From NCBI GenBank assembly GCA_030390025.1, contig CM059432.1, forward strand, positions 86,802,001 to 86,866,000: DNA of 64,000 nucleotides. Reading direction: 5' to 3'. Under the pieces are notes generated by a model. That model saw only the letters and a list, made by a program, of their open reading frames with translations. It was not told the origin of the DNA and made no database searches. This document shows positions 1-62,908 of this stretch, in pieces. How positions within the stretch are numbered: the first letter of the stretch is position 1; each line of letters begins with the position of its first letter. The position numbers and the translations under genes were made by a program. This DNA is from Squalus acanthias. Lineage: Eukaryota.

Positions 1-175
1 TTAATCCATTTAATAATAGATTACATAGGTGGTTGGAGGAAAGGAGAACAAAGGGTTATAAGAATAGAGTGGGCACATGGGATTAGGACCACTGCTTGTA
101 TGGAGGATATACATTAACGTTACTGGTTGAGCCAAACGGCCTGTCTCCATGTTGTAATTTCTATGTAATTTTATG
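1..175 (+). mobile_element. Degraded CR1 LINE 3' end
   Basis: CR1-type 3'UTR (gccaaacggcctgtctcc) and an 8-mer-like tail ttctatgtaattttatg. Confidence 0.6.
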
Positions 176-179
176 ACCT

Positions 180-290
180 AGTTTTTCCTACATTACAACA
201 GTGGTTACACTTCAAAAGCACTTCATCGTCTGTGAAACACTTTGGGGCATCCTGAGGTTGTGAAAGGCACTATATAAATGCATTTGTTCT
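180..290 (+). mobile_element. 3' tail fragment of the Deu-domain tRNA SINE
   Basis: cctacattacaacagtggttacacttcaaaag...gaaaggcactatataaatgca is the reverse complement of the tail of the full copy at 40961-41416. Confidence 0.7.
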
Positions 291-1034
291 TTGTTCTTCT
301 ATGCTTGCACTAAGCCAGTACCAAAATTTTGTTTCAAATAACAGACAGGACTAATTTTCTCTTTCACAAATTGTCTCTCCCAGTTTTCTCTCCTGTCCAC
401 CCTTTTAAGCATTGACCAATTGCCAGGGTACAGTTGCATAGGTGGTAGTTACTGTTTGGTCTTCACCCAGGTGGCCATCTGTAAACCTTGGTAGTGAGTG
501 TTGACTTTTGTTAATATTTGGTTTTAAAGGACTTAGATATCCTGAACATACATTTATGGATTAAAATAAACCTAACCGCTGTCTATTCACTATTTGTTTT
601 GCAAGGCAATGTGCTCCGTCTGAGAAGTTATCTTATGGTGACGATTGATTTCAGAAAGTAATTTAAAACTACTGTAAACGAAGTTAGAGATTATATTGTT
701 GTAAAAGTAACCATCATTCTTTAGAGTTGCATTAAAAAGAACAGCAAGAGTTTTGATGAGGTTTTGGCAGTAATTATGTAAATTTTATATATCTCTTGCC
801 AAATCTTCATCACGTGTTGTGTAAATATTATGTGCAATTCATGCCAGGGTACAATTCCACTGGCACCAGCAGCTGCCTGGGACCTCACGTAAGTGGACTG
901 CACATACAATACAATGCCTGCTGAAGAACTGCTCTGTGGCTTCACACCACCCCCAAACTCCAGTAGTTAAGCAATGATTATTTTGCAGGGATACTGGACA
1001 TGGAAATTTCAGAAATGTACATGTAAAACGGTGC

Positions 1035-1745
1035 ATAGAATTATATAGAATATACAGCAGAAAAACAGGCCATTTGGCCTAACTGGTCTCCACACGAGCC
1101 TCCTCCCACTCTAATTACCTCTGCTCACTCTGCTTCGTATCCCTCTATTCTCTTCTCCCTCATGTATGCATCAGGCCTCCCTTAAATGTATCAATGTTAT
1201 CATGTGACAGCGAGTTCCACATTCTCACTACAGTCTGTAAAGAAATTCCTCCTAAATTCTTTATTTGATCTGTTAATGGCTATCATATATTTATGCAACC
1301 TTGTTCTGGACTCACCCACAAGTGAACAGTTTCTCCACCTCCAACCTATGAAACCCCTTCATAATTTTAAAGACCTCTATGAAGTCTCCTCTTTTCAAGA
1401 GAAAAGAACCCTAGCCTGCTCAATCTTTCCTCTTCGTTGCATCCTCTCAATTCTGGCAACATCCTTGTAAATCTTTTCTGTACTTTTTCCAGTACTTCAA
1501 TATCCTTTTTGTAATAGAGACCAGAACTGCACACAGTACTCCAAATATGGTCTAACCAGTGTTCTATAAACATTTACCTTTGTGCTTTTATATTCTATTC
1601 CACTAAAAATAAACCCCAGTACTTTGTTTACACTCTTCATGGCCTTATCAACTTATGTTGCTACTTTTAGCGATTTATGTATCTGTATTCTCATAGCTCT
1701 GGGCTCCTCAACCCCATTTAGTTTCCTACCTTCCAAGGAATAAGT
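1035..1745 (-). mobile_element. Degraded CR1 LINE (RT C-terminus + 3'UTR)
   Basis: ORF 1367-1573(-) [30 protein letters not shown] is CR1 ORF2 C-terminal sequence; tail repeat at about 1035. Confidence 0.85.
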
Positions 1746-1994
1746 GGCCTCCTTATATAGCCTAATAAATAGAAGTCTAGATTACAGTTTTTACAGATTT
1801 TGTCTTTTGGCACATTCTTTCTCAGCCTATCCTTGGTGTTATGATCATTTTCTTTTAAACATGTTTCTTTTTATTGTTTTCCTGAAGTTGGTGACTCCTG
1901 CTGGAGTGAGGTTCCTGGGCACACCCAAACCTTGCTCAAATGCCCATTTTCATACATGATCCCAGACAACAAGAGTTGGGAAGTCGTTTGACAA

Positions 1995-2262
1995 TGGGAA
2001 TATCACAGCTGAGCCCATTCCCGTCAGATGAGTACTTACGCATACTATCCAGTCACCGGATAGTAATGAGGCGAGAAAGCCTAGTTGATTTTTTTGCCCA
2101 CCCTAGTCCAGTGGTATTGAGGACAATTGTAGTACTCCAACAACCACTCAACCTGAGACGAGCTAACTCAGCACAGATAGGGGTTGGAGCCTATCTTTCC
2201 TGGTTTGTATAGCTCTTACCACACTTGGCAGTTTAGTTAACCACTGAACCAATTAGGGTTCC
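1995..2262 (-). mobile_element. Ancient tRNA-derived SINE, degraded (family name uncertain, AmnSINE2-like by recollection)
   Basis: Minus strand has ..ccaggaaag..tctgtgctgagttagct.., a motif that recurs at about 5100-5450(-), 10380-10650(-), 16200-16580(-), 19245-19520(+), 33210-33520(-) and 34210-34890(-). Confidence 0.6.
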
Positions 2263-3534
2263 TTCAGTTGCTTTTTTTTCTCTTTAGTTTTTACAATACT
2301 CCTATAATTGGAGAGTTCTTAGCCTATCTATGCAGGACCTATTAGTTCCATTTTTACTTCTCTTCACCACTGCATCTTTCCGGACTGGATCAGGATTAAA
2401 TGTTCTGATCATTATGAAGGAATGAATAAAAGACTTAAAAGCTCTCATTACTTCTGAATAGGACAAACTCCTTGAGCTCTAGCAGCCCACTGAGCTTTAT
2501 ATATTTTGGAATTATTTGTGAAATAGTGGAAATATGAACACCTTTTTGCCCTAATAATTCTTTAATAGTATTGAACATACAATATTTTGAAATGTATCAT
2601 ATTTTACCCCTGCTTGCATCTAGAGTTCCCACCATTTGCCAAGTGGAATAACATACATAGGTAGGATTGTAGTGGGGGGTGTTGCCAAGGGTGGAACTTT
2701 GGCTTGAGCTCTGACAGTCTCTTTGCTCCTGACAAAAACTCAGTAAAAATCCCAGTTACTTTAATTATTAATGCCTCCACATCACAAGACATAAAATCAA
2801 GCAGATAACTTGTGTCTCTGAAGGAGTCGACATGCTAATATATTGATTAGGACAGGCTGCTGGAAGGAGGCTACTTGCTTTTGATCAGAAATAAATCAAT
2901 TGCTCAGATATGAATGGAACGTGTCAAATATCCATCATGGGCAAATTTGTCAATGTAACATTTTGTAGTCCTCATCAACACCTGCTAGTGATCATTTTCA
3001 TGCTTTCACATTTATTCGTTGTAAAGATTGCTGGTTTTGTTCAGTTAATTATCTTTATCTGATTGACTAACCTCCACACAAAATGACAATTTTGAGAGTG
3101 ATTTGAGTATAAAAAATGTCTACATTGTGTGTGGTGGCAGTTCAATTTATTTCACTGTGGCACAGAGGTAAATCAGGCTCTGTAAGTTTTTTTTTTGGTT
3201 TTTTTTTTTACACAATTTATTTTGCTTTTGCTAAGAAATAAGATTACTTATTTTCTTCCTGTAAAGTGCTTCATCTCAAGTTCTGTAAGAATTCAAAAGA
3301 TCCTGTCTGACTGGTTTGATTAATTCCTTGTGAACTTTCCAGACTGGACACCTCAACTATATTGCTTACTTTTGTGACTAATTCTATTTTTGAATAAACC
3401 AGTAACAAATAGTGGCTGGCACCATTCATCTTGTCCATCTTCTGAAATGACATGAGATGTACTAAAAAGTTATATATTATCCAGGAACAAGTTTTCAATA
3501 AAGGGAAGAACGCTAATTCCCATTTACGAATGCA

Positions 3535-26910: not shown

Positions 26911-27774
26911 AATGGTATGGTAGAATAGTGTTTGTTACTGGACTAGTAATCCAGAGGCCTGGACCAGTAATCTGGAGACACGAGTTCAAATCCCACCATG
27001 GTAGTTTGTGAATTTGAATTCAGTTAATTAAATAAAACTGGAATTAAAAAGCTAGTATAATTAATGGTGATCATGAAGCTATTGGATTGTCGTAAAAACC
27101 CAACTGGTTCACTAATGTCGTTCAGAGAAGGAAACCTGCCGTCCTTACCCGGTCTGACCTATATGTGATTCCAATGTGGTTGACTCTTAACTGCCCTCTG
27201 AAATGGCCCAGCAAGCCACTTAGTTGTACAACCCAGCCCAGTCAACTCTGCAAAGTCCTCCTCAGTAACACCTGGGGACTTGCACCAAAATTGGGAGAGC
27301 TGTCTCACAGACAGCCTAACATAACCATACTCTCAGAATCATACCCATCTCCATCACCATCTCTGGGTATGTCCCACCGGCAGGACAGACCCACCAGAGG
27401 TGGTGGCACAGTGGTATACAGTCAGGAGAGTGGCCCAGGGAGTCCTCAACATTGACTCGGACCCAATGAAGTCTCATAAACAAGGAAACCGCCTGCTGAT
27501 TACCAGCCTCAGCTGATAAATTAGTGCAATCAAGCGGCACTTACTCACCAATAACCTGTCCGCCAGGACCACTTGGCTCCAGACCTCATTACAGCCTTGG
27601 TCCAAACATGAACAAAAGAGCTGAATTCCAGAGGTGAGGTGACAGTGACATCAAGGCAGCATTTGACAGAGCATGGCATCAAGGAGTCCTAGTTAAATTG
27701 AAGTCAATGGGAATCAGGGGGAAAACTCTCCACTGGTTAGAGTCATACCTAGCACAAAGAAAGATGGTTGTGGT

Positions 27775-27907
27775 CAATGTTCCCTTTAAACTGCGTGGCT
27801 GCACAGCTGTCTGGAGGTCCCGCGCAGCCCAGGACTGGCTTTTCAAATCGGACCCGCACAGCCCGTTAAAGGGACTGCGCACTCACAAAAAATTAGAGGG
27901 AACATTG
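27775..27907. mobile_element. hAT-like MITE (133 bp), copy 2
   Basis: CAATGTTCCCTTTAA...TTAGAGGGAACATTG; TSD gttgtggt / gttgtggg. Confidence 0.82.
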
Positions 27908-28407
27908 GTTGTGGGAGGCCAATCATCTCAGCCCCAAGACATCGCTGCAGAGTTCTTCAGGGCAGTGTCCTAGGCCCAACCATCTTCAGCTGCTTCATCA
28001 ATGACCTTCCCTCCAACATAAGGTCAGAAATAGGGATGTTCGCTGATGACTGCAGTGTTCAGTGCCATTCACAACTCCTCAGATAATGAAGCAGTCCATG
28101 CCCGCATGCAACAAGACCTGAACAACATTAAGGCTTGGGCTGATAAGTGGCAAGTAACATTCATGCCACACAAGTGCCAGGCAATGACCATCTCCAACAA
28201 GAGAAAGTCAAACCACCTCCCCATGACATTCAATGGGATTATCATCATCCTGGGGGGGGGGGTCATCATTGATCAGAAACTCAACTGGACTAGCCACATA
28301 AATACTGTGGCTACAAGAGCAGGTCAGAGGCTGGGTTTTCTGCAGCGAATGACTCACCTCCTGACTTCCCAAAGCCTTTCCACCATCGACAAGGCACAAG
28401 TCAGGAC

Positions 28408-28542
28408 CAATGTTCCCCGTATTTTTTGGGGGGTACGTGGCCCCTTTAAGTGGCTGCATGGCCCATTCACAGATTCATTGCAAAAGCCAGTCCCGGGCTG
28501 CATAAGACCGGCAGAGAGCTGCGCAGCTTATCGGGAACATTG
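28408..28542. mobile_element. hAT-like MITE (135 bp), copy 3, opposite orientation
   Basis: CAATGTTCCC...GGGAACATTG; TSD gtcaggac / gtcaggag. Confidence 0.82.
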
Positions 28543-28880
28543 GTCAGGAGTATGATGGAATACTCTCCACTTGTCTGGATGAGTGCATCTCCAACAGAAC
28601 TCAAAAATCTCAACACCATCCAGGACAAAGCAGTCCGCTTGATTGGCACCCCATCCACCACCTTAAACATTCACTCCCTCCACCATGACACTGTGTCCAC
28701 AGTGTGTACCATATACAAGATGTACTGCAGCATCGCGCCAAGGCTCCGAGAAAGACAAGGGCAGCAAGCGCATGGGAACACCACCAGCTCCAGATAACCT
28801 CCAAGTTACACACCATCCTGACTTGGAAATACATCGCCATTCCTTCATTGTCGCTGGGTCAAAATCCTTGAACTTACTAC

Positions 28881-29021
28881 CAATGTTCCCTCTAACTTTT
28901 TTTGGGCCGCGCAGCCCATTCAAAAATCCACTCATGCGCGTTTTTTTCATTTAAAAGCCGGTGAGCCAACTGCGCGGAGATCAAGACAGCTGCGCGGCCA
29001 CACAGCTTAAAGGGAGCATTA
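28881..29021. mobile_element. hAT-like MITE (141 bp), copy 4, opposite orientation
   Basis: CAATGTTCCCTCTAA...TTAAAGGGAGCATTA; degenerate TSD cttactac / caccctac. Confidence 0.78.
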
Positions 29022-30039
29022 CACCCTACCTAACAGCACTGTGGGAGTACCTTCACCACACGGACTGCAGCGGTTCAAGAAGGCAGCTCACCACCACATC
29101 ATCAAGGGCAATAAAATGCTGGCCTTGCCAGTGAAACCCACATCCCATAAATGAATAATAAAATTTGTTGAACACTCCATGTTGAATACCACTTGGAAGA
29201 AGCAAGGGCACAGAATGTACTCTGGGTGGGGGACTTCAATGTCCATCACCAAAAGTGGCTCTTAGCACCACCACTGACCGAGCTGGCTGAGTTCTGAAGG
29301 ACGTAGCTGCCAGACTGGGCAGGTGGTGAGAACCAACGCGAGGGAAAGCTACCTTGACCATGTCCTCACCAATCTACCTGTCGCAGATGCATCTGTCCAA
29401 GGAAGTATTGGTAGGAGTGACCACCGCACAGTACTTGCGGAGACGAAGTCCCGTCTTTACACTGAGGACACCCTCCATCGTGTTGCGTGACACTACCAGC
29501 GTGCTAAATGGGATAGATTCAGAACAGATCTAGCAGCTCAAAACTGGGCATCCATGAGACAATGTGGGCCATCAACAGCAGCAGAATTGTATTCCACCAC
29601 AATCTACAACCTCTCAGCCTAGCATATCCCTCACTCTACCATTACCATCAAGCCAAACGACCAACCCTGGTTCAATTAGAATAGCATGCCAGGAGCAGTA
29701 CCAGGCATACCTGAAAATGAGGTGCCAACCTGGTTAAGCTACATCACAGGAATACATGCATGCTAAACAGCAGAAGCAGCAAGGTACAGATAGAGTCAAG
29801 CGATCCACAACCAACGGACTAGATCAAAGCTCTGCAGTCCTGCCACATCCACTCATGAATGGTGGTGGATAATTAAACTAAGGGGAGGAGGCTGCTCCAT
29901 GAACATCCCCATCCTCAACTATGGTGGAGCCCAACATAAAAGACAAGGCTGAAGCGTTCCTTGTTCTGTTCTGTGGCTGTATGCTCCTCCTAGTTTTCTA
30001 TGCATCTTGTTTCTCCTCTCTGCCGCTGCGCCCTGGTGC

Positions 30040-34469: not shown

Positions 34470-34800
34470 AATTTTTTTTATTTGTTCATGGGATGTGGGC
34501 GTTGCTGGCAAGGCCAGTATTTATTGCCCATCCCTAATTGCTCTCGAGAAGGTCGTGATGAGTTGCCTTCTTGAACCGCTGCAGTCCGTGTGGTGAAGGT
34601 ACTCCCACAGTGCTGTTAGTGAGGGATTTCCAGGATTTTGACCCAGCGACGATGAAGGAACAGCAATATATTTCCAAGTCAGAATGGTGTGAGACTTGGA
34701 GGGGAACTTGGAGGTGGTGGTGGTGGTGTTCGCATGTGCCTGCTGCCCTTGTCCTTCTAGTTGGCAAAGGTCGCGGGTTTTCTGAGATGCTGTCGAAGAA
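34470..34800 (-). mobile_element. 3' end of the tRNA-headed LINE family, inserted into an ancient SINE
   Basis: Matches 62580-62908 in reverse (PLPTRRTRAA..GSKSW..PHGLQRFKK). Confidence 0.85.
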
Positions 34801-46939: not shown

Positions 46940-47940
46940 TAAAAAAAAAAAAAATTGTTCTTGGGATGTGGGCGATACTGCCAAGGTAGCATTTATTGCA
47001 CATCCCTAGCTGTCCTGACGGTATTAAGACAGCCAAAAAAATACATTTGAAGAAAAAGACCATGTTTTGCAACTGAATATCTGTGTGCAAGGCCATTCAT
47101 TAGAATCTTTAATCAAACGGGCTGCTTTGTCCTGGATGGTGTCGAGCTGCTTGAGTGTTGTTGGAGCTGCACTCATCCAGGCAGTGGAGAGTATTCCATC
47201 ACACTCCTTGTGCCTTGTAGATGGTGGAAAGGCTTTGGGGAGTCAGGAGGTGAGACACTCGCCGCAGAATACCTAGCCTCTGACCTGCTCTTGTTGCCAC
47301 AGTATTTATGTGACTGGTCCAGTTAAGTTTCTGGTCAATGGCGACCCCCAGGATGTTGATGGTGGGGGAATTCGGCAATGGTAATGCAGTTGAATGTCAA
47401 GGGGAGGTGGCTAGACTCTCGCTTGTTGGAGATAGTCATTGCCTGGCACTTCTGTGGCACGAATGTTACCTGCCACTTATCAGCTCAAGCCTGAACGTCG
47501 TCCAGGTCTTGTTGCATGCAGGCATGGACTGCTTCATTATCTGAGGAGTTGTGAATGGCACTGTGCAGTCATCAGCGAACATTCCCATTTCTGACCTTAT
47601 GTTGGAGGGAAGGTCATTGATGAAGCAGCTGCAGATGGTTGTGCCTAGGACACTGCACTGAGGAACTCCTGCAGCGATGTCCTGGGGCTGTGATGATTGA
47701 CCACAACCATCTTCCTTTGTGCTAGGTATGACACCAGCTAGTAGAGCGTTTTCCCCGATTCCCATTGACATCAGTTTTACTAGGGCTCCTTGATGCCACA
47801 CTCGGTCAAATGCTGCCTTGATGTCAAGGGCAATCACTCTCACCTCACCTCTGGAATTCAGCTCCTTTGTCCATGTTTGGACCAAGGCTGTAATGAGGTC
47901 GGGAGCCGAGTGGTCTTGGCGGAACCCTAACTGGGCACCA
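46940..47940 (-). mobile_element. tRNA-headed LINE family, RT fragment (about 47112-47940) plus tail piece (about 46940-47015)
   Basis: ORF 47466-47972(-) QLGFRQDHSAPDL..ALDIKAAFDRVWH..GVPQCSVLG..MFADD. Confidence 0.88.
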
Positions 47941-48949
47941 GTTTCACAGCTAAGATCAGGAATATACTGCAAGTGGAAATGCAGCAGTTAATCTGTCCTA
48001 CCAGTCCACAGGACATCATGTTAGTATGGCACTAAGAGCCCGCACCACATAGCGAAACTGGTATTCAAGAAATCACCCAGCATTACATTGTCCTTTATAA
48101 AGCACAGATCCTCAAAAATACTTGCGGGGAAAAAAAGTCACTGCCATTGAGTACTACATTAAATCTGGCGTCCAAATTCACAAATTATCATCTATACTGA
48201 GAAAGAGGACACAACTCTACCGTTAATATGTGATTTATAGTTTTTTTTGTTAAAGTGCTAATATACTGCTGAAGACAACAATACCTTTATATACTCCAAT
48301 ACATGTCATGCACTTTTTGGTTGACTGTCAACCAGCTTTTATTACGCCACCTCTACCATACAAGGAAAGCAGAAAAACTCTGAACTATTTAGTACATATC
48401 AGCAATAATAATAGCCGGTTGTGCCTTTAAGGCTGTAATTAAATCTCAGCTCTATTGAGATCCATGAACTGCCTCAAGCTTCAAGCTCATGGTTTAGGAT
48501 CTCATCAGAACCCACAACTGAATTGAACCTTATACCTCCCTGACAGCTACTCATTATCCTGTAGTTTGCACAACCTTAAAATAAAGCTCCTTGAGATGCG
48601 TCAACCAAATAAAAACTTAAAAACTCAGTTACTGAACCACTGTTGTTGGGAGCCCCCAAGCTCCTGGCAGTGCCTCCATTCCCAGCACCAGTGCCTTTCT
48701 TCCTCAATAACTCTTCCTCTGTACAAATCAAGTGGAACTCTTTCATCCCCACGGCATCAACATTACTGGAAGACAGGTTGTCTCTCCTCCTCCAAACAGG
48801 AATTTTCACTCTCTTCCCCAACACCAAAGACCAATTTATTGCGCTCATTCTCTCTCCCCATCCACTGCAAACAGATCTCTCCATTCCCCTGACTTTCGTC
48901 TTTCTATTTACTACCTTGCAAAACGGTGCCTTTCTTCCACAATTCAAGA

Positions 48950-49260: not shown

Positions 49261-49559
49261 GTTGGTATTCAGAGGGAGAACGCAGTGCAGGTGTAAAGGG
49301 GGTGGTGTGGAAGAACGTGATCCAGGCCTAACAGAGGGCGGAGAAAAGTGACCCATCTTCCCATTTGGATCACGTTTTTGCTCTCATCCACCCCTCCCTT
49401 AGACCTAGATCACATTCTCCCCACCACTGTTCTCACCATGCTCCAACCCCCAACAAGTCCCCGACGGTCTTTCCCGGAGTTCCTGACAGTCCCCAACTCC
49501 CCATGAGCTTGACCTTCACCTTCCCCACGCCACCCCCGCCAGCTTTTCTGGCCTTTTCC

Positions 49560-52500
49560 CCCCCTCGCCGATCCCCTCTCCCCCTTCGACCCATCCCCTC
49601 CCCTCTCCCCCCTTCGACCCGTCCCCTCCCCTCTCCCCCCTTCGACCCGTCCCCTTCCCCTCTCCCCCCTTCGACCCGTCCCCTTCCCCTCTCCCCCCTT
49701 CGACCCGTCCCCTCCCTTCGACCCGTCCCCTCCCCTCCCTTCGACTCCCCCTCCCCTCCCCCCTTCGACCCGTCCCCTCCCCCCCTTCGACCCGTCCCCT
49801 CCCCCCCTTCGACCCGTCACCTCCTCTCTCCCCCCTTCGACCCGTCCCCTCCCCCCCTTCGACCCGTCCCCTCTCCTCTTCCCCCCGCTTCGATCCCCTC
49901 TCCGTCCCCTCGCTTCCCTTCCCACCCCCCTCCCACGTCCCCTCACTTCCCTCCTCCCTCCCACGTCCCCTCGCTTCCCTTCCCACCCCCCTCCCACGTC
50001 CCCTCACTTCCCTCTTCCCTCCCACGTCCGCTCCCTTCCCTTCCCACCCCCCCTCCCACGTCCCCTTCCCTTCCCTTCCCACGTCCCCTCCCTTCCCTTC
50101 CCACCCTCCGCCCCTCCCACGTCCCCTCCCTTCCCTCCCCCCCTCCCACGTCCCCTCCCTTCCCTCCTCCCATCCCATGTCCCCTCCCTTCCTTCCACCC
50201 CCCCTCCCACGTCCCCACCCCCCCACGTCCCCTCCCTTCCCACCCCCCCTCTCCGTCCCCTCCCTTCCCTTCCCAACCCCCCTCTCCGTCCCCTCCCTTC
50301 CCTTCCCACCCCCCCTCTCCGTTCCCTCCCTTCCCTTCCCCCCCTCTCCGTCCCCTCCCTTCCCACCCCCCCTCTCCGTCCCCTCCCTTCCCTTCCCACC
50401 CCCCTTCTCCGTCCCCTCCCTTCCCTTCCCACCCCCCTTCTCCGTCCCCTCCTTCCCTTCCCACCCCCCTTCTCCGTCCCCTCCCTTCCCTTCCCACCCC
50501 CCCTCTCCGTCCCCTCCCTTCCCTTCCCACCCCCCCTCTCCGTCCCCTCCCTTCCCTTCCCACCCCCCCTCTCCGTCCCCTCCCTTCCCTTCCCACCCCC
50601 CCTCTCCGTCCCCTCCCTTCCCTTCCCACCCCCCCTCTCCGTCCCCTCCCTTCCCTTCCCACCCCCCCTCTCCGTCCCCTCCCTTCCCTTCCCACCCCCC
50701 CTCTCCGTCCCCTCCCTTCCCTTCCCACCCCCCCTCTCCGTCCCCTCCCCTCCCTTCCCACCCCCCCTCTCCGTCCCCTCCCCTCCCTTCCCACCCCCCC
50801 TCTCCGTCCCCTCCCTTCCCACCCCCCCTCTCCGTCCCCTCCCTTCCCACCCCCCCTCCCTTCCCACCCCCCCTCCCTTCCCACCCCCCCTCTCCGTCCC
50901 CTCCCTTCCCACCCCCCCTCTCCGTCCCCTCCCTTCCACCCCCCCTCCCACCCCCCCCCTCTCCGTCCCCTCCCACCCCCCCTCTCCGTCCCTCCCACCC
51001 CCCTCTCCGTCCCCTCCCACCCCCCCTCTCCGTCCCCTCCCTTCCCTTCCCCCCTCTCCGTCCCCTCCCTTCCCTTCCCACCCCCCCTCTCCGTCCCCTC
51101 CCTTCCCTTCCCACCCCCCCTCTCCGTCCCCTCCCCTCCCTTCCCACCACCCCTCTCTGTCCCCTCCCTTCCCACCCCCCCTCTCCGTCCCCTCCCTTCC
51201 CTTCCCACCCCCCCTCTCTCTGTCCCCTCCCTTCCCACCCCCCCTCTCCGTCCCCTCCCTTCCCTTCCCACCCCCCCTCTCTCTGTCCCCTCCCTTCCCA
51301 CCCCCCCTCTCCGTCCCCTCCCTTCCCTTCCCACCCCCCCTCTCCGTCCCCTCCCTTCCCTTCCCACCCCCCCTCTCCGTCCCCTCCCTTCCCTTCCCAC
51401 CCCCCCTCTCCGTCCCCTCCCTTCCCTTCCCACCCCCCCTCTCCGTCCCCTCCCTTCCCTTCCCACCCCCCCTCTCCGTCCCCTCCCTTCCCTTCCCTTC
51501 CCACCCCCTTCGTCCCCTCCCTTCCCTTCCCACCCCCTTCCCTTCCCACCGCCTTCGTCCCCTCCCTTCCCTTCCCACCCCCTTCGTCCCTCCCTTCCCT
51601 TCCCACCCCCTTCGTCCCCTCCCGCTTCGTCCTCTCCCTTCCCTTCCCACCCCCTTCCCTCCCCACCCCCTTCGTCCCCTCCTTCCCTCCCCACCCCCTT
51701 CGTCCCCTCCCTTCCCTCCCCACCCTCTTCGTCCCCTCCCTTCCCTCCCCACCCTCTTCGTCCCCTCCCTTCCCTCCCCACCCTCTTCGTCCCCTCCCTT
51801 CCCTCCCCACCCCCTTCGTCCCCTCCCTTCCCTCCCCACCCCCTTCGTCCCCTCCCTTCCCTCCCCACCCCCTTCGTCCCCCCCCCCACCCCCTTCGTCC
51901 CTCCCTTCCCTCCCCACCCCCTTCGTCCCCTCCCTTCCCTCCCCACCCCCTTCGTCCCTTCCCTCCCCACCCCCCTTCGTCCCTTCCCTCCCCACCCCCT
52001 TCGTCCCTTCCCTCCCCACCCCCTTCGTCCCTTCCCTTCCCACCCCCTTCGTCCCCTCCCTCCCCACCCCCTTCGTCCCCTCCCTCCCCACCCCCTTCGT
52101 CCCCTCCCTCCCCACCCCCTTCGTCCCCTCCCTTCCCTCCCCACCCACCCCCTTCGTCCCCTCCCTTCCCTCCCCACCCACCCCCTTCGTCCCCTCCCTT
52201 CCCTCCCCACCCCCTTCGTCCCCTCCCTTCCCTCCCCACCCCCTTCGTCCCCTCCCTTCCCTCCCCACCCCCTTCGTCCCCTCCCTTCCCTCCCCACCCC
52301 CTTCGTCCCTCCCTTCCCTCCCCACCCCCCTTCGTCCCCTCCCTTCCCTCCCCACCCCCTTCGTCCCTCCCTTCCCTCCCCACCCCCTTCGTCCCTCCCT
52401 TCCCTCCCCCACCCCCTTCGTCCCCACCCCCTTCGTCCCCTCCCTTCCCTCCCCACCCCCTTCGTCCCCTCCCTTCCCTCCCCACCCCCTTCGTCCCCTC

Positions 52501-52785
52501 CCTTCCCTCCCCACCCCCTTCGTCCCCTCCCTTCCCTCCCCACCCCCTTCGTCCCCTCCCTTCCCTCCCCTCCCCCTTCGTCCCCTCCCTTTCCTCCCCA
52601 CCCCCTTGTCCCCTCCCTTCCCTCCCCACCCCCTTCGTCCCCTCCCTTCCCTTCCCACAACCTTCGTCCCCTCCCTTCCCTTCCCTTCCCACAACCTTCG
52701 TCCCCTCCCTTCCCTTCCCTTCCCACCCCCTTCGTCCCCTCTCTTCCCTTCCCAGCCCCTTCGTCCCCTCTCTCCCCACCCTATG
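49560..52785. repeat. About 3.2-kb polypyrimidine/polypurine minisatellite array with drifting unit
   Basis: Successive blocks: cccttcgacccgtcccct; ccctcccacgtcccct; 33-bp ccccccctctccgtcccctcccttcccttccca; 29-bp cccccttcgtcccctcccttccctcccca. Confidence 0.95.
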
Positions 52786-55071: not shown

Positions 55072-57055
55072 CAGTGCTTCCTGTAAGGTGTGCAGCCGTG
55101 CACTGCTCCAGGGAACCCGCGCAGCAGGCTTGCCGGCATTTCAATGTAAAAACTGCACATGCGCATTATGGACAAACAGGGGGCTATAGGGGGAGAGGAG
55201 CTAAACACGATCAAAATCACTAAGGAAGTGGTACTCGGTAAAATAATGGGACTCAAGGCGGATAAATCACCTGGACCTGATGGCTTACATCCTAGAGTCT
55301 TGAAGGAAGTGGCGGTAGGGATTGTAGATGCATTGGTAATAATTTTTCAAAACTCCCTGGATTCCGCTAAGGTCCCGGCAGACTGGAAAACTGCTAATGT
55401 AACACCCTTATTTAAAAAGGGCAGTAGACAGAAGGCTGGTAACTATAGACCGGTTAGCCTAACATCTGTGGTAGGTAAAATTTTGGAGTCCATTATTAAG
55501 GAAACAGTAACAGGACATTTGGATAATCATAATTTAATAGGACAAAGTCAGCATGGTTTTACGAAGGGGAAGTCATGTTTGACAAATTTGCTGGAGTTCT
55601 TTGAGGAAGTAACATATAGAGTGGATAAAGGGGAACCAGTGGACGTAGTGTATTTAGACTTCCAAAAGGCATTTGACAAGGTGCCACATAAAAGATTATT
55701 GCTTAAGGTAAAAAATCACGGGATTGGGGGTAATATTCTGGCATGGATAGAGGATTGGCTATCTAACAGAAAGCAAAGAGTTGGGATAAATGGTTCATTC
55801 TCAGACTGGCAATCAGTAACTAGTGGTGTTCCACAGGGGTCAGTGCTGGGTCCCCAACTCTTTACAATCTATATTAACGATTTGGAGGAAGGGACCAAGT
55901 GTAACATATCAAAATTTGCAGATGATACAAAGATGGGAGGGAAAGTAGTGAGTGAGGAGGACATAAAAAACCTGCAAGGGGACATAGACAGGCTAAGTAA
56001 GTGGGCAGAGATTTGGCAGATGGAATACAACACTGGAAAGTGTGAGGTGATGCACTTTGGCAGGAAAAATCCTAGAGCAATTTATTATCTTAATGGCAAG
56101 AAACTGGAGAGTACTGAAGTGCAAAGGGATCTGGGGGTCCTGGTGCACGAAACTCAAAAGGTTAGTATGCAGGTGCAGCAAGTGATTAAGAAGGCAAATG
56201 GAATGTTGGCTTTCATTGCTAGGGGGATAGAATATAAAAATAGGGAGGTATTGCTTCAGTTGTACAAGGTATTGGTGAGACCGCACCTGGAATACTGCAT
56301 ACAGTTTTGGTGTCCTTACTTAAGGAAAGACATCCTTGCTCTCGAGGCAGTGCAAAAAAGGTTCACTCGGTTAATCCCGGGGATGAGGGGGTGGTCATAT
56401 GAGGAGAGGTTGGGTAGATTGGGACTCTACTCATTGGAGTTCAGAAGAATGAGAGGCGATCTTATTGAAACATATAAGATTGTGAAGGGGTTGGATCGGG
56501 TGGATGCGGGGAGGATGTTCCCGATGACGGGTGAGACGAGAACTAGGGGACATAGTCTTAGAATAAGGGGCTGCTCTTTCAAAACTGAGATGAGGAGGAA
56601 CTACTTCACTCAGAGGGTGGTAGGTCCATGGAATATGCTGCCACAAAAAGCTGTAGAAGCTACATCATTAAATAAATTTAAAACAGAAATAGACAGTTTC
56701 CTAGAAGTAAAGGGCATTAAGGGTTACGGGGAGCGGGCAGGAATTTGGACATGAGTCTAGGTTCGGATCGGTCATGGCCCTGTGGGTAGTGGAGCGGGCC
56801 CAGGGACCGTGTAGCCTGATTCTGCTCCTATTTCGTGTGTGCAATTCTGTTAGATGCAGGAGATGGTTCTGTGATAGATAGTAGATTGGCGGTTAGGATC
56901 AGATCAGCCATGATCTTATTGAATGGCGGAGCAGGCTCGAGGGGCCGATTGGCCTACTCCTGCTCCTATTTCTTATGTTCTTATTTTCAATTGCCCACTC
57001 AGTCCCTTAAAGGGGCCACCCAGCGCAAGGCCAAAAAAAATTACAGGGTGTATAG
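55072..57055. mobile_element. hAT-like MITE copy 6 (about 55072-55167 and 56985-57055), split by a young CR1
   Basis: Degenerate TIRs cagtgcttcctgtaa / ttacagggtgtatag; degenerate TSD gtcccagt / gtcagaga; interior motifs shared with the other copies. Confidence 0.68.
55168..56984 (+). mobile_element. Very young 5'-truncated CR1 with uninterrupted RT ORF (531 aa)
   Basis: ORF 55159-56754 has all RT motifs through the natural stop with no disablement; tail tttcttatgttcttat. Confidence 0.95.
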
Positions 57056-57656: not shown

Positions 57657-60600
57657 CTGTGTACGGTAGCATAGTGGTAATGTTACTGGGCTAGTAATCC
57701 AGAGGCCTGGACTAATGATCTGGAGACGGGAGTTCAAATCCCACCATGGCAGCTGGGGAATTTAAATTCAGTTAATTAAATTAATCTGGAATAAAAAAGC
57801 TAGCATCGGTAATGAAACTATCGGATTGTCGTATGTCCTTTAGGGAAGGAAATTTGCCATCCTTACCTGGTCTGGCCTATATGTGACTCCAGATCCACAG
57901 TAATGTGGTTGACTTCCCTCAAATGGCCAAGCAAGCCACGAAAAACAAGAATAAAACCAGACGGACCACTGACATCGACCGGCTTTGGACACGACAACGG
58001 CACACCCAGCCCAGTCAACCCTGCAGAGTCCTCCTCATTAACATCTGGGGACTTGTGCCAAAATTGGGAGAGCTGTCCCACAGACTAGTCAAGCATCGGC
58101 CTGACAGTCATACCTACAGAATTATACCTTTCAGCCAATGTCCCAAACGCCTCCATCACCATCCCTGGATATGTCCTCCCTCAGCTGATGAATCAATGCT
58201 CCTTCATGTTGAACACCACTTGGGGGTAGCAAGGGCACAGAATGTACTCTTGGTAGGGGACTTCAACGTCCATCACCAAGAATGGCTCGGTAGCACCACT
58301 ACTGACTGAGCTAGCCGAGTCCTGAAAGACACAGCTGCCAGACTGGGCCTGTGTCAGGTGGTGAGAGAACCAACACAAGGGAGAAGCCTACTTGACCTCG
58401 TCCTTGTGGAGACAAAGTCCCGTCTTTACACTGAGGACCACCGTGTTGTGTGGCACTACCACCGTGCTAAATGGGATAGATTCAGAACAGATCTAGCAGC
58501 TCAAAACTGGGCATCCATGAGGCGCTGTGGGCCATTAGCAGCAGCAGAATTGTATTCCACCACAATCTGTAACCTCATGACCCGGTATATCCCTCACTCT
58601 GCTATTACCATCAAGCCAGGGGACCAAACCCGGTTCAATGAGTGCAGAAGAGCATGCACCAGGCATACCTAAAAATGAGGTGCTAACCTGGGAAGCTGCA
58701 ACACAGGACTACAGACATACTAAACAGCAGAAGCAGCATGCTATAGACAGAGCTAAGCAATCTCACAACCAGCGGATCAGATCAAAGCTCTGCAGTCCTG
58801 CCACATCCAGTCGTGAATGGTGGTGGGCAATTAAACAACTGATTGGAGGAGGAGGCTCCATGAATATCCCTATCCTCAATGATAGCGGAGCCCAGCACGC
58901 GTGTGCAAAAGACAAGGCTGAAGCGTTTGCAACCATCTTCAGCCAGAAGTGCCGAGTGGATGATCCCTCTCGGCCTCCTCCTGAGGTCCCCACCATCACA
59001 GAAGCCAGTCTTCAGCCAATTCGATTTACTCCACATGATAAAGAAATGGCTGAGCGCACTGGATACAGCAAAGGCTGTGGGCCCCGACAACATCCCGGCT
59101 GTAGTGCTGAAGACTTGTGCTCCAGAACTAGCCGTGCTTCTAGCCAAGCTGTTCCAGTACAGCTACAACACTGGCATCAACAAAAAGCAGGACAAATCCA
59201 ATCCGGCCAACTACCGCCCCATCAGTCTACTCTCAATTATCAGCAAAGTGATGGAAGGTGTCATTGACAGTGTTATCAAGTGGCACCTACTCACTAATAA
59301 CCTGCTAACCGATGCTCAGTTCGGGTTCCGCCAGGAACACACCGCTCCAGACCTCATTACAGCCTTGGTCCAAACATGGACAAAAGAGCTGAATTCCAGA
59401 GGTGAGGTGACATCAAGGCAGCATTTGAATGAGTGTGGCATCAAGAAGCCCAAGTAAAATTGAAGTCAATGGGAATCAGGGGGAAAACTTTCCACTGGCT
59501 GGAGTCGTACCTAGCACAAAGGAAGATGGTTGCGGTTGCTGGAGGCCAATCATCACAGCCCCAGGACATTGCTGCACAGAGTTCCTCAGGGCAGTGTCCT
59601 AGGCCCAACCATCTTCAGCTGCTTCAGTAACGCCACAGATAACGAAGCAGTCCGTGCTCGCATGCAGCAAGACCTGGATGACATTCAGGCTTGAGCTGAT
59701 AAGTGGCAAGTAACATTCTTGCCACACAAGTGCCAGGCAATGACTATCTCCAACAAGCGATAGTCTAACCACCTCCAACAAGCGATAGTCTAACCACTGC
59801 CCCATGGTATTCAACAGCAGAACCATCGCCGAATCCCCCACCATCAATATCCTGGGGGTCACCAGTGACTAGAAACCAGCCACATAAATACTGTGGCTAC
59901 AAGAGCAGGTCAGAGGCTGGGTATTCTAAGAACATAAGAAATAGGAGTAGGCCATTCGGCCCTTCGAGCCTGCTCCGCCATTTAATGAGATCACGGCTGA
60001 TCTTCTGCCTCAACTCCATTCTGCCCTATTGCCATATCCCTTGATGCTCTTACTAGTCAGAAATCTATCGACTTCTGTTTTGAATATACCCAATGACTGA
60101 GCCTCCACAGCCCTCTGGGGTAGAGAATTCCAAAGATTCACCACCCTCTGTGTGAAGAAATTTCTTCTCATCTCAGTCCTGAATGGCCTACCCTTTATCT
60201 CAAGGCTGTGGTCCCTGGTTCTAGACTCCCCAGCCAAGGGAAACATTCTCCCAGCATCCATCATATCAAGCCCTGTAATAATTTTGTATGCTTCAATGAG
60301 ATCCCCTCATTCTTCTGAATTCAAGAGAATACAGGCCGAGTTTACTCAATCTCCTCTCATATGACAGTCCCGCCATCCCAGGAATCAATCTCGTGAACCT
60401 TCGTTGCACTCCCTCGATGGCAAGTATATCCTTCCTTAGGTAAGGAGACCAAAATTGTACACAGTACTCCAGGTGTGGTCTCACCAAGGCCCTATATAAT
60501 TGGAATAAGACTTCTTTACTCCTGTACTCAAATCCTCTTGTAATGAAGGCCAGCATACCATTTGTCTTCCTAATGGCTTGCTGCACCTGCACATTCACTT

Positions 60601-62908
60601 TCAGTGACTCATGTGCAAGGACACCCAGGTCCCTTTGAGCATCTGCATGCCCCAATCTTTCACCATTTAGGAAATACTCTGCCTTTCTGTTTTTTCTACC
60701 AAAGTGGACAACTTCACATTTATCCACATTATATTCCATCTGCCATGTTCTCGCCCACTCACTGAGCCTGTCGAGATCCCCTTGAAGCCTCTTCACATCC
60801 TCTTCGCAACTGCCACTGCCACCTAGCTTTGTATCATCAGCAAATTTGGAAATGTTACATTTAGTCCCCTCATCCAAATCATTGATATGGATTGTGAATA
60901 GCTGGGGCCCAAGCACCGATCCTTGCGGTACCCCACTAGTCACAGCCTGCCATCCTGAAAAAGACCCGTTTATCCCTACTCTTTGTTTTCTGTCTGTTAA
61001 CCAATTCTCAATCCATGCTAGTATATTACCCCCAATTCCATGTGCCCTAATTTTGTTCACCAACCTCTTGTGCGGGACCTTATCGAAGGCCTTCTGAAAA
61101 TCCATATACACCACATCTACTGGTTCCCCTTTGTCTACTCCACTAGTTACATCCTCAAAGAACTCCAATAGCTTTGTCAAACAGGATTTCCCTTTCATAA
61201 ATCCATGTTGACTCTGCCCAATCTTACTATTAGTTTCTAAGTGCCCAGTTATTGCATCCTTTATAATAGATTCCAGCATTTTCCCAACTACTGATGTGAG
61301 GCCAACGGGTCTGTAGTTCCCCGTTTTCTCTCTCCCTCCTTTCTTAAATAGCGGGGTTACATTTGCTATCCTCCAATCTGCAGGAACCGTTCCAAAATTC
61401 TATCGATTCTGGAAGATGACAACCAATGCGTCCACTATTCCAATGGCCACCTCTTTCAAAACCCTAGGATGTAGGTCATCCGGTCCTTGGGATTTATCGA
61501 CTTTTAGTACCATTAATTTTGCTAGTACTGTTTTTTTACTAATAATAATTTCTTTAAGTTCCTCATTCTCGCCACACCCTTGGTTTTCTCGTATTCCTGG
61601 GAGGTTTTTTGTGTCTTCCTCCATGAAGACAAACAAAGTATTTATTTAATTTCTCTGCCATTTCCTCATTCCCCATTATAAATTCTCCCGTCTCTGACTG
61701 TAAAGGACCTACATTTACCTTCGCCAGTCTTTTCCTTTTCACATACCTATAGAAGCTTTTACAATCCGTTTTTATATTTTTCGCTAGTTTATGCTCATAT
61801 TCCATTTTCCCTTTATCAATTTCTTGGTCCCCCTTTGCTGATTTCTAAAAAGATCCCAATCCTCAGGCTGACCGCTTTTTCTGACAACTTTATAAGCTTC
61901 CTCCTTTGACTTAATACTAGCTTTAATTTCTTTTGTTAGCCATGGTTGGATCACTTTTCCTTTTGGGTTTTTATGCCCCAGAGGAATATATGTTTGTTGC
62001 AAATTATGCATTATTTCCTTGAATGTTAGCCATTGTATGTCCACCTTCATACCTTTTAGTGAAGTCTCCCAATCTACCATGGCCAACTTGTCCCTCATAC
62101 CCTTGTAGTTTCCTCTGTTTAGATTGAAGACCTTAGTTTGAGATTGGACTACATCACTCTCAAACTTAATGTAAAATTCAATCATATTATGGTCACTTGT
62201 CCCTAAAGGCCCGTTTACCACAAGATTATTGATTAGCCCTTTCTCATTACACAGTACCAGATCCAGAATAGCCTGTTCCCTGGTTGGTTTCTCCACATAC
62301 TGATCCAGGAAACCATCTCGCATGCATCGAGTGTCTCACCTCCTGACTCCCCAAATCCTTCCCACCAACTACAAGGCACAAGTCAGGAGTGTGACAGAAT
62401 ACTCTCCACTTGCCTGGATAAGTGCAGCTCCAACAACACAAGAAGATAAACACCACCCAGGACAAAGCAGCCCGCTTGATTGGCAGCCCATCCACCACAT
62501 TAAACATTGACTCCCTCCACCACCGGCGCACTGTGGCTGCAGTGTGCACCATCTACAAGATGCACTGCAGCAACTCGCCAAGGCTTCTTCGACAGCACCT
62601 CCCAAACACGCAACCTCTACCACCTAGAAGGACAAGGGCAGCAGGCGCACGGGGAACACCATCACCTCCAAGTTCCCCTCCAAGTCACACACCATCATGA
62701 CTTGGAAATATATCGTTGTTCCTTCATAGTCACTGGGTCAAAATCCTAAAACTCCCTCCCTAACAGCACTATGGGAGTACCTTCACCACTTGGGACTGCA
62801 GCGGTTCAAGGTGGCTCACCACCAACTTCTCAAGGGCAACTGGGGATGGGCAATAAATGCTGGCCTTGCTAGCGACGCCCACATCCCAGGAATGAATAAT
62901 AAAAAAAG
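57657..62908 (+). mobile_element. Near full-length tRNA-headed LINE (57657-59927 and 62322-62908), split by a minus-strand CR1
   Basis: A box TAGCATAGTGG 57667-57677; B box GTTCAAATCC 57732-57741. EN: INIWGLVPKLGELSHRL, VGDFNVHH. RT: GPDNIPAVVLK, ANYRPISLLS, QFGFRQ. Tail gcccacatcccaggaatgaataataaaaaaa. Several internal deletions and frameshifts. Confidence 0.88.
59928..62321 (-). mobile_element. CR1 ORF2 fragment (EN end, RT, 3'UTR)
   Basis: ORFs 61784-62323, 61563-61805, 61400-61636, 60293-61279 (328-aa RT) and 60010-60264, all on the minus strand. Confidence 0.93.

Follow-up and report, generated by a model that had tools for sequence, protein, structure and literature searches.

Can RNA polymerase III (Pol III) transcribe a protein-coding retrotransposon from the kind of promoter that drives short interspersed elements? 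The question is raised by a 64,000-nucleotide stretch of the dogfish Squalus acanthias genome (assembly GCA_030390025.1, contig CM059432.1, positions 86,802,001–86,866,000; hereafter the window). Here a long interspersed element (LINE) at 57657 begins with a transfer RNA (tRNA)-like head, continues into an endonuclease and a reverse transcriptase (RT), and ends in an A-tail. In the textbook division, LINEs are coding and transcribed by RNA polymerase II (Pol II), while short interspersed elements (SINEs) are short, non-coding and transcribed by Pol III. A first-pass annotation of the window proposed that this element departs from that division. Our analysis points the same way. The family, a Zenon LINE, is probably transcribed full-length by Pol III from the A and B boxes of its head, giving an uncapped, polyadenylated RNA which would be translated independently of an AUG. 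This reading is preferred to use of the same leader by Pol II because transcripts would start on the tRNA +1 base, the boxes are kept from rays to sharks, Pol III terminators are deficient, and there is no usable AUG.

Whether the head belongs to the LINE depends on where copies of the family begin. Searching the 3.7-Gb host genome with head plus endonuclease gave 41 matches from 9083 first-look candidates, and 39 of these were taken at 7.5 kb. Over the full span from head to tail, most align colinearly with the window copy, sharing its start base in unrelated flanks; one consists of head and tail only. Since a head-based sample is biased toward the head, the search was repeated with endonuclease-only queries (39 and 38 copies, the query and a near-duplicate being left out of the second set). 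Head position 1–7 is reached by 23 of the 39 copies in the first set, the other 16 stopping at 34–526, and by 10 of the 38 in the second, the others stopping at 11–790. Together, 33 of 77 copies start at the head and the remainder are 5'-truncated. The flanks of the 39 copies have no in-register sequence in common, and no alternative family 5' end occurs among the 77. The same 5' boundary is seen in a second organism (B), in which 380 contigs break off into unrelated loose ends at one shared base, and contigs of organisms B and D span the junction between the head and the open reading frame (ORF). Because samples chosen by endonuclease alone start at the head within unrelated flanks, the head is the true 5' end of the LINE, with no ORF1 upstream, as the first-pass annotation had held.

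An independent SINE might also have landed by chance in front of truncated LINE copies, given how abundant head-bearing SINEs are (2711 first-look candidates). This is refuted by the head–ORF junction, which is colinear in dozens of unlinked copies, with no A-tail between the two parts, and in other species; chance has virtually no probability as an explanation. The annotation's suggested check, whether full-length copies begin at the head inside one target-site duplication (TSD), is uninformative, because no TSD is detectable in this family (4 of 36 copies, against 9.7% in mismatched pairs).

The family majority, built from 32 young copies (2.3–5.2% diverged), is 3.3 kb long. It comprises a leader of about 330 nt with no long ORF, a single frame of 970 aa with endonuclease and RT domains, and an A-tail. 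Non-CpG polymorphisms in the ORF are synonymous at 47 sites and non-synonymous at 30; the master copies are therefore coding and the ORF is under purifying selection. No fully intact ORF was present among the fetched copies, the longest open frame being 710 aa. This, like the lack of an AUG-initiated ORF, would suit a non-autonomous SINE–LINE chimera, moved in trans by a master with another 5' end or an ORF1. Such a chimera is highly improbable and already largely refuted: the majority ORF is open and under selection, none of the 77 endonuclease-selected copies shows another 5' end, and the same structure recurs in five elasmobranch lineages.

On sequence grounds the family is the elasmobranch Zenon, a member of the CR1 group, described by Stuart et al. 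2026 (PMC13343379), whose lack of ORF1 was already known. It has a single ORF with endonuclease and RT, no ORF1 and a poly-A tail. The first 400 nt of SquAca_Zenon-1 (3314 nt, in agreement with the length found here) match our majority at all but about three positions, read by eye. The esterase ORF1 and microsatellite tail of canonical vertebrate CR1 elements are absent, the tail here being an A-tail. Zenon elements of sharks, rays, coelacanth and hagfish are all described as lacking ORF1 and having a poly-A tail, the latter unique to Zenon among CR1-group elements (PMC13343379). Because both traits are hallmarks of all Zenon elements, neither carries weight for Pol III. Published Zenon rows were compared by eye over the first 400 nt of each. 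SquAca, CarCar, RhiTyp, ScyCan and HypSab Zenon-1 (3.24–3.31 kb) all begin with the head, three of the five with the canonical B box GGTTCGAATCC. Over those 400 nt, the white shark, whale shark, catshark and stingray rows contain no run of four or more T (T4; A4, C4 and G4 are used likewise), and two hagfish rows and one coelacanth row have other 5' ends, no head and T4.

The nearest proteins are metagenome LINE proteins, 45–48% identical, compared with about 30% for canonical CR1 in the window. From 499 metagenome loci 80 were kept, 28–45% identical in their best segment. A B-box pattern upstream of the match was found in none of the 80. T4 is present in the best segment of 78 and elsewhere in the locus of one of the other two; because of this, terminator avoidance is not a clade-wide trait. 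Many of these relatives have single frames of 1100–1300 aa on contigs of 3.5–4.5 kb. Three metatranscriptome runs, one labelled a coral metagenome, share 7–9% of the element's words. When an older sister family was sought with a 70%-identity fragment, the search led back to the tRNA-headed Zenon family itself.

The shortest Pol III terminators are TTTT and TVTTT (PMC8466645). The family majority has no T4, against 7 TTT, 15 A4, 11 C4 and 9 G4; its 32 copies (98.9 kb) hold seven T4 in all, and none of 169 polymorphic sites creates one. With codon usage fixed, 3.23 TTTT or TVTTT are expected in the majority ORF and none is found (p=0.018); for ORF plus leader the figures are 5.1 and none (p=0.002). 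The equivalent patterns for A, C and G occur in the ORF at 1.06, 0.95 and 0.82 of expectation. Ten CR1 ORFs from the same genome contain 65 terminators where 76.9 are expected (0.85), and 60 metagenome relatives have a median ratio of 1.0, with none at zero. On a strand so poor in T (T 19–20%; TT at 0.71 of expectation), T4 by itself makes a weak test; by synonymous resampling it gives 0 against 3.9 in the ORF (p=0.013). Runs of three or more T number 5 against 11.4 expected (p=0.0055), and windows with four T in five number 1 against 9.8 under a Markov model (p=0.006). The majority of 27 more diverged copies (90 differences) likewise has no T4. Three majority sequences differing at 35–90 sites contain no TTTT, and the two checked for TVTTT have none.

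The window agrees with the first-pass counts. Once its nested CR1 is removed, the 57657 copy (2851 nt) has no T4, compared with 14 A4, 8 C4 and 9 G4. The 15 family segments together (6683 nt) contain a single TTTT, in the second head-bearing copy, and the neighbouring CR1 at 55168–56984 contains four T4. With terminators fewer than expected by chance and than in the CR1 controls, the terminator deficit that the annotation had read by eye is borne out.

The ORF has no conventional start. Its first in-frame methionine is residue 284, downstream of the endonuclease. The leader contains an ATG in good context and in the frame of the ORF, but stops intervene: codon 3 is TAG in 39 of 55 copies, codon 9 is TAA or TGA in 44 of 52, and no AUG runs unbroken into the ORF. 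In 16 of the 55 copies codon 3 is sense instead, and the youngest copies carry two in-frame stops. Just here the leader can form a hairpin with a 7-nt loop, C-U-AGC-A-A, and an in-frame GCT follows about 12 nt behind the stem. The three loop bases AGC are kept in 54, 54 and 53 of 54 copies, and the sole common stem variant turns G-C into G-U; the common variants of the region otherwise fall at the loop U, in the linker or at CpG sites. In the five species' rows, by eye, stems, loop and GCT are unchanged while linker and next codon vary. In our majority and in four of the published rows the GCT shares the frame of the ORF; in the whale shark row, by eye, the GCT is in frame and the ATG is not.

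Some other features of this region may be recorded. The T of the TAG at family position 309 (window 57929), which is also the loop U, has given way to C, G or A in 16 of the 55 copies, far above a background of 2–5%. ACG was considered as a conserved start codon and dropped, as other species have ACA or AAA there. A 48-codon +1 frame overlaps the N-terminus (family ~357–500; window ~57955–58090), and its ATG is present in 36 of the 60 copies; the five published Zenon-1 rows have it too, as read by eye. As a start it was rejected: it is mostly with respect to the endonuclease frame that substitutions there are silent, and inspection by eye showed no canonical slippery site.

The strongest competitor is use of the same leader by Pol II. 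The head would then be an ordinary internal Pol II promoter or 5' untranslated region (UTR), or the transcripts would be Pol II read-through; the RNA would be capped and the ORF reached by reinitiation or read-through after AUG-GCC-stop. T-runs would be rare through the T-poor strand and avoidance of U-rich splice or cleavage signals. Base composition and the low TT frequency do explain part of the deficit, but the deficit is confined to T patterns and remains when codon usage is fixed. The combination of AATAAA and A-tail equally serves Pol II as a signal, besides being a general Zenon trait (PMC13343379), and LINEs are generally regarded as Pol II products (PMC5786205); starts, however, cluster on the tRNA +1 base. 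The leader ATG, with its good context, its frame and the 16 copies in which codon 3 is sense, would serve such a transcript, but against it stand the two stops of the youngest copies and the out-of-frame ATG of the whale shark row. Use of Pol II is a possibility to be taken seriously, though an unlikelier one than Pol III.

Transcription by Pol III would fit the following course of events. Before the lineages of sharks and rays parted, an ancestral Zenon may have acquired the 5' portion of a tRNA SINE through template switching, and selection would then have cleared TTTT and TVTTT from the coding strand. Pol III would stop at a short T-run, either at the 3' end or past it, and the RNA would be polyadenylated by way of the AATAAA that lies about 45 nt upstream, in the manner of mammalian T+ SINEs. 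The endonuclease–RT protein would copy its own RNA and those of SINEs sharing its tail. For initiation, the proposal favoured for now is a tRNA-mimicking hairpin, in which the loop AGC would pair with the in-frame GCT that lies just ahead of the first codon to be translated; alternatively, ribosomes may reinitiate after the two-codon AUG-GCC-stop upstream ORF. The pairing model is likened to the intergenic internal ribosome entry site (IRES) of dicistroviruses. There, an anticodon-like hairpin pairs with a triplet that is in frame and precedes a first codon other than AUG, and a double-pseudoknot ribosome-binding domain lies upstream. As a tentative and rather doubtful extension, Zenon may be a natural protein-coding Pol III gene in the full sense: an uncapped 3.3-kb mRNA with a captured SINE promoter, a non-AUG start through a tRNA-mimicking IRES at the end of the SINE body, SINE bodies acting as ribosome-recruiting RNAs, and SINEs arising by internal deletion.

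Several observations weigh against Pol III transcription or against the initiation model. The terminator signal is T-specific, moderate in size and drawn from one lineage; the three majority sequences are not independent, and two of the ten control CR1 ORFs are individually below p=0.05 for terminators. T4 alone is not significant by codon permutation of the ORF (0 against 1.65, p=0.15) or by a first-order Markov model (p=0.24), and in other species the terminator reading covers the first 400 nt. A T-run of at least four precedes the A-tail in only 4 of 36 copies. Usual Pol III transcripts are far shorter than 3.3 kb. The A and B boxes vary among copies at 0.041 and 0.026, compared with 0.035 for the ORF, and are thus no better kept, while the B box of the window lineage departs from the canonical form. 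The RNA-like runs that contain the family are contigs only, carrying no information on start, strand, cap or polymerase, and two raw-read runs, set aside, yielded 131 and 0 reads. As to the hairpin, it is no more stable than shuffles (z=0.36), no two-sided compensatory change occurs among 54 copies, the whole leader has no Rfam hit at E<=10, and pseudoknot pairs between loop and GCT would number only 3–4. After the GCT, the published dogfish row is one A shorter than our majority, showing that single-base frame calls from such rows are fallible.

If Pol III is indeed used, nature would have a Pol III messenger in this family: a LINE kept from rays to sharks that has a SINE promoter, a terminator-free coding strand and no start AUG. 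One construct would bear on kilobase-long coding Pol III RNA in vivo, on translation of uncapped LINE RNA and on the conservation of SINE bodies. Should Pol II be used instead, the family is still an example of a LINE that took on a SINE for its 5' end and yields new SINEs by deletion.

The likeness of the head to a tRNA depends on its 21-nt internal duplication. With the duplication there is no Rfam hit; a head copy without it matches the Rfam tRNA model RF00005 at 21.2 bits (E=0.019), short of the gathering score, which is 29. Scanning the window with ARAGORN yielded no tRNA; at a lowered threshold the program gave noise only. Head and leader do not fold better than shuffles. A tRNA-related 5' head bearing A and B boxes is a feature of tRNA-derived SINEs (SINE2), from whose short, non-coding character the element departs with 3.3 kb and a 970-aa ORF under selection.

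Shorter forms of the element do occur. Thirty loci found through the SINE junction are elements of about 400 nt that join LINE positions 1–306 to 3209–3305, some of them 5'-truncated. Twenty-eight junctions could be read, 24 of the 1–306/3209–3305 type, which the query favoured, and four that keep more of the head. These head-plus-tail SINEs are deletion forms of the LINE, and to that extent the annotation's view of the LINE as their parent stands. It was probably not the original source of the head: more likely, the LINE captured an older SINE head and later gave rise to new SINEs. An age of the head greater than that of the fusion is suggested because Deu-SINEs with tRNA head and LINE tail occur also in chimaera and coelacanth (PMC5499810).

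The window copy itself is a decayed, full-length Zenon LINE with several internal deletions and a nested CR1. Its parts are listed in Table 1, which makes small corrections to the earlier coordinates for the element start (now about 57659), the end of the A-tail and the nested CR1; the A and B boxes stay where they had been placed. In this copy the downstream GCT partner of the hairpin is deleted; most family copies have a stop two codons after the ATG.

Table 1. Zenon-related features of the window, in window coordinates; family positions refer to the majority sequence.
Feature	Position	Strand	Remarks
Decayed tRNA-headed Zenon LINE	57659..62907	+	Colinear with family majority 5-3309, 80-91% identity
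tRNA-derived head, 21-nt internal duplication, A-B spacing 54 nt	57659..57752	+	
A box	57667..57677	+	Read from sequence
B box	57732..57741	+	Read from sequence
SINE-type body, common to the genome's head-plus-tail SINEs (family ~95-306)	57753..57926	+	Putatively Deu-type
Remnant hairpin with 7-nt anticodon-like loop	57919..57940	+	Contains family ATG 57923-57925
Basic N-terminal extension and AP-endonuclease domain, broken	57941..58430	+	Pfam PF14529/PF03372; tblastn
Linker and reverse-transcriptase domain, broken	58431..59927	+	Pfam PF00078
Nested ordinary CR1	59928..62327	-	7 T4 runs on own sense strand
C-terminal part of single ORF	62328..62840	+	
3' UTR, tail common to SINEs	62841..62907	+	AATAAA 62852-62857, A-tail 62901-62907
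Second head-bearing copy	26913..29163	+	Head, endonuclease start, RT, tail; single TTTT 28336-28339
Family segment 786-1603, just behind second copy's tail	29175..29958	+	
5'-truncated copy, family 2983-3304	34472..34800	-	
Internal fragment, family 2025-2879	47111..47942	-	Tail fragment at 46953-47016

The second head-bearing copy, whose B box lies at 26984–26993 as first reported, lacks about 1.2 kb of its interior (family ~751–1985). Inserted in its 2.2 kb are three related miniature inverted-repeat transposable elements (MITEs) at 27775–27905, 28407–28542 and 28882–29020, with CAATGTTCCC-type inverted ends. One of the three is flanked by an 8-bp duplication, presumably of the kind made by hAT elements. 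The family segment behind this copy supplies most of the missing interior, directly after the A-tail and in the same orientation, and is either a local rearrangement or a second insertion. Nearly every copy fetched carries several private deletions of 5–30 nt, many between short direct repeats, with substitutions at only 2–6%; deletion looks like a main mode of decay in this genome. Beside one Zenon copy lies a 671-aa open frame which resembles, by eye, the RNase H–integrase region of a long terminal repeat (LTR) retrotransposon. Elsewhere in the window, a C-rich tandem array of 3.2 kb with a period of 33 (49559–52781) produces spurious open frames of about 950–1190 codons on both strands.

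The main text of Stuart et al. 2026 (PMC13343379) contains neither 'tRNA' nor 'polymerase III' and makes no remark on the head, the terminator deficit or the missing AUG. No earlier description of a tRNA-headed coding LINE was found in the searchable literature, Repbase, Dfam and subscription papers lying outside the search, and the SINE-type promoter architecture of Zenon appears to be undescribed in the papers searched.

Several known systems share one part or another of this arrangement. SacSINE1 and LmeSINE1 are Deu-SINEs of sharks, skate, chimaera and coelacanth (Luchetti et al. 2017, PMC5499810), with a tRNA head, a conserved body and a LINE-type tail. The SINE found here has the same layout at about 400 nt and, likened by description on host, size and layout, would be Deu-type. 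SacSINE1 and LmeSINE1 are described as non-coding, however, with the tail alone homologous to a LINE (L2-2_CM) (PMC5499810). The lepidopteran Zenon derivative Persaeus is likewise a short internal-deletion form made of 5' and 3' ends, but, unlike the SINEs here, it is described as without tRNA homology or a Pol III promoter (PMC6740152). In the bipartite RTE/Vingi system a short element is built from LINE ends, and the tRNA head is carried by that short element rather than by the coding LINE (PMC5786205).

For the RNA, the closest parallels are R2 and L1Tc, coding LINEs whose RNA is regarded as uncapped and as translated by way of a structured 5' leader, much as is proposed for Zenon. Their promoters are of another kind: R2 is co-transcribed by RNA polymerase I and L1Tc is cut from polycistronic RNA, both being released by a hepatitis delta virus (HDV)-like ribozyme with no tRNA promoter (PMC6765202). 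For the 3' end, the mammalian T+ SINEs B2, Dip and Ves combine a tRNA head with AATAAA and a variable T-run before the A-tail, as here. These are short and non-coding and are reported from mammals only (PMC8466645), whereas the Zenon element of the dogfish is coding.

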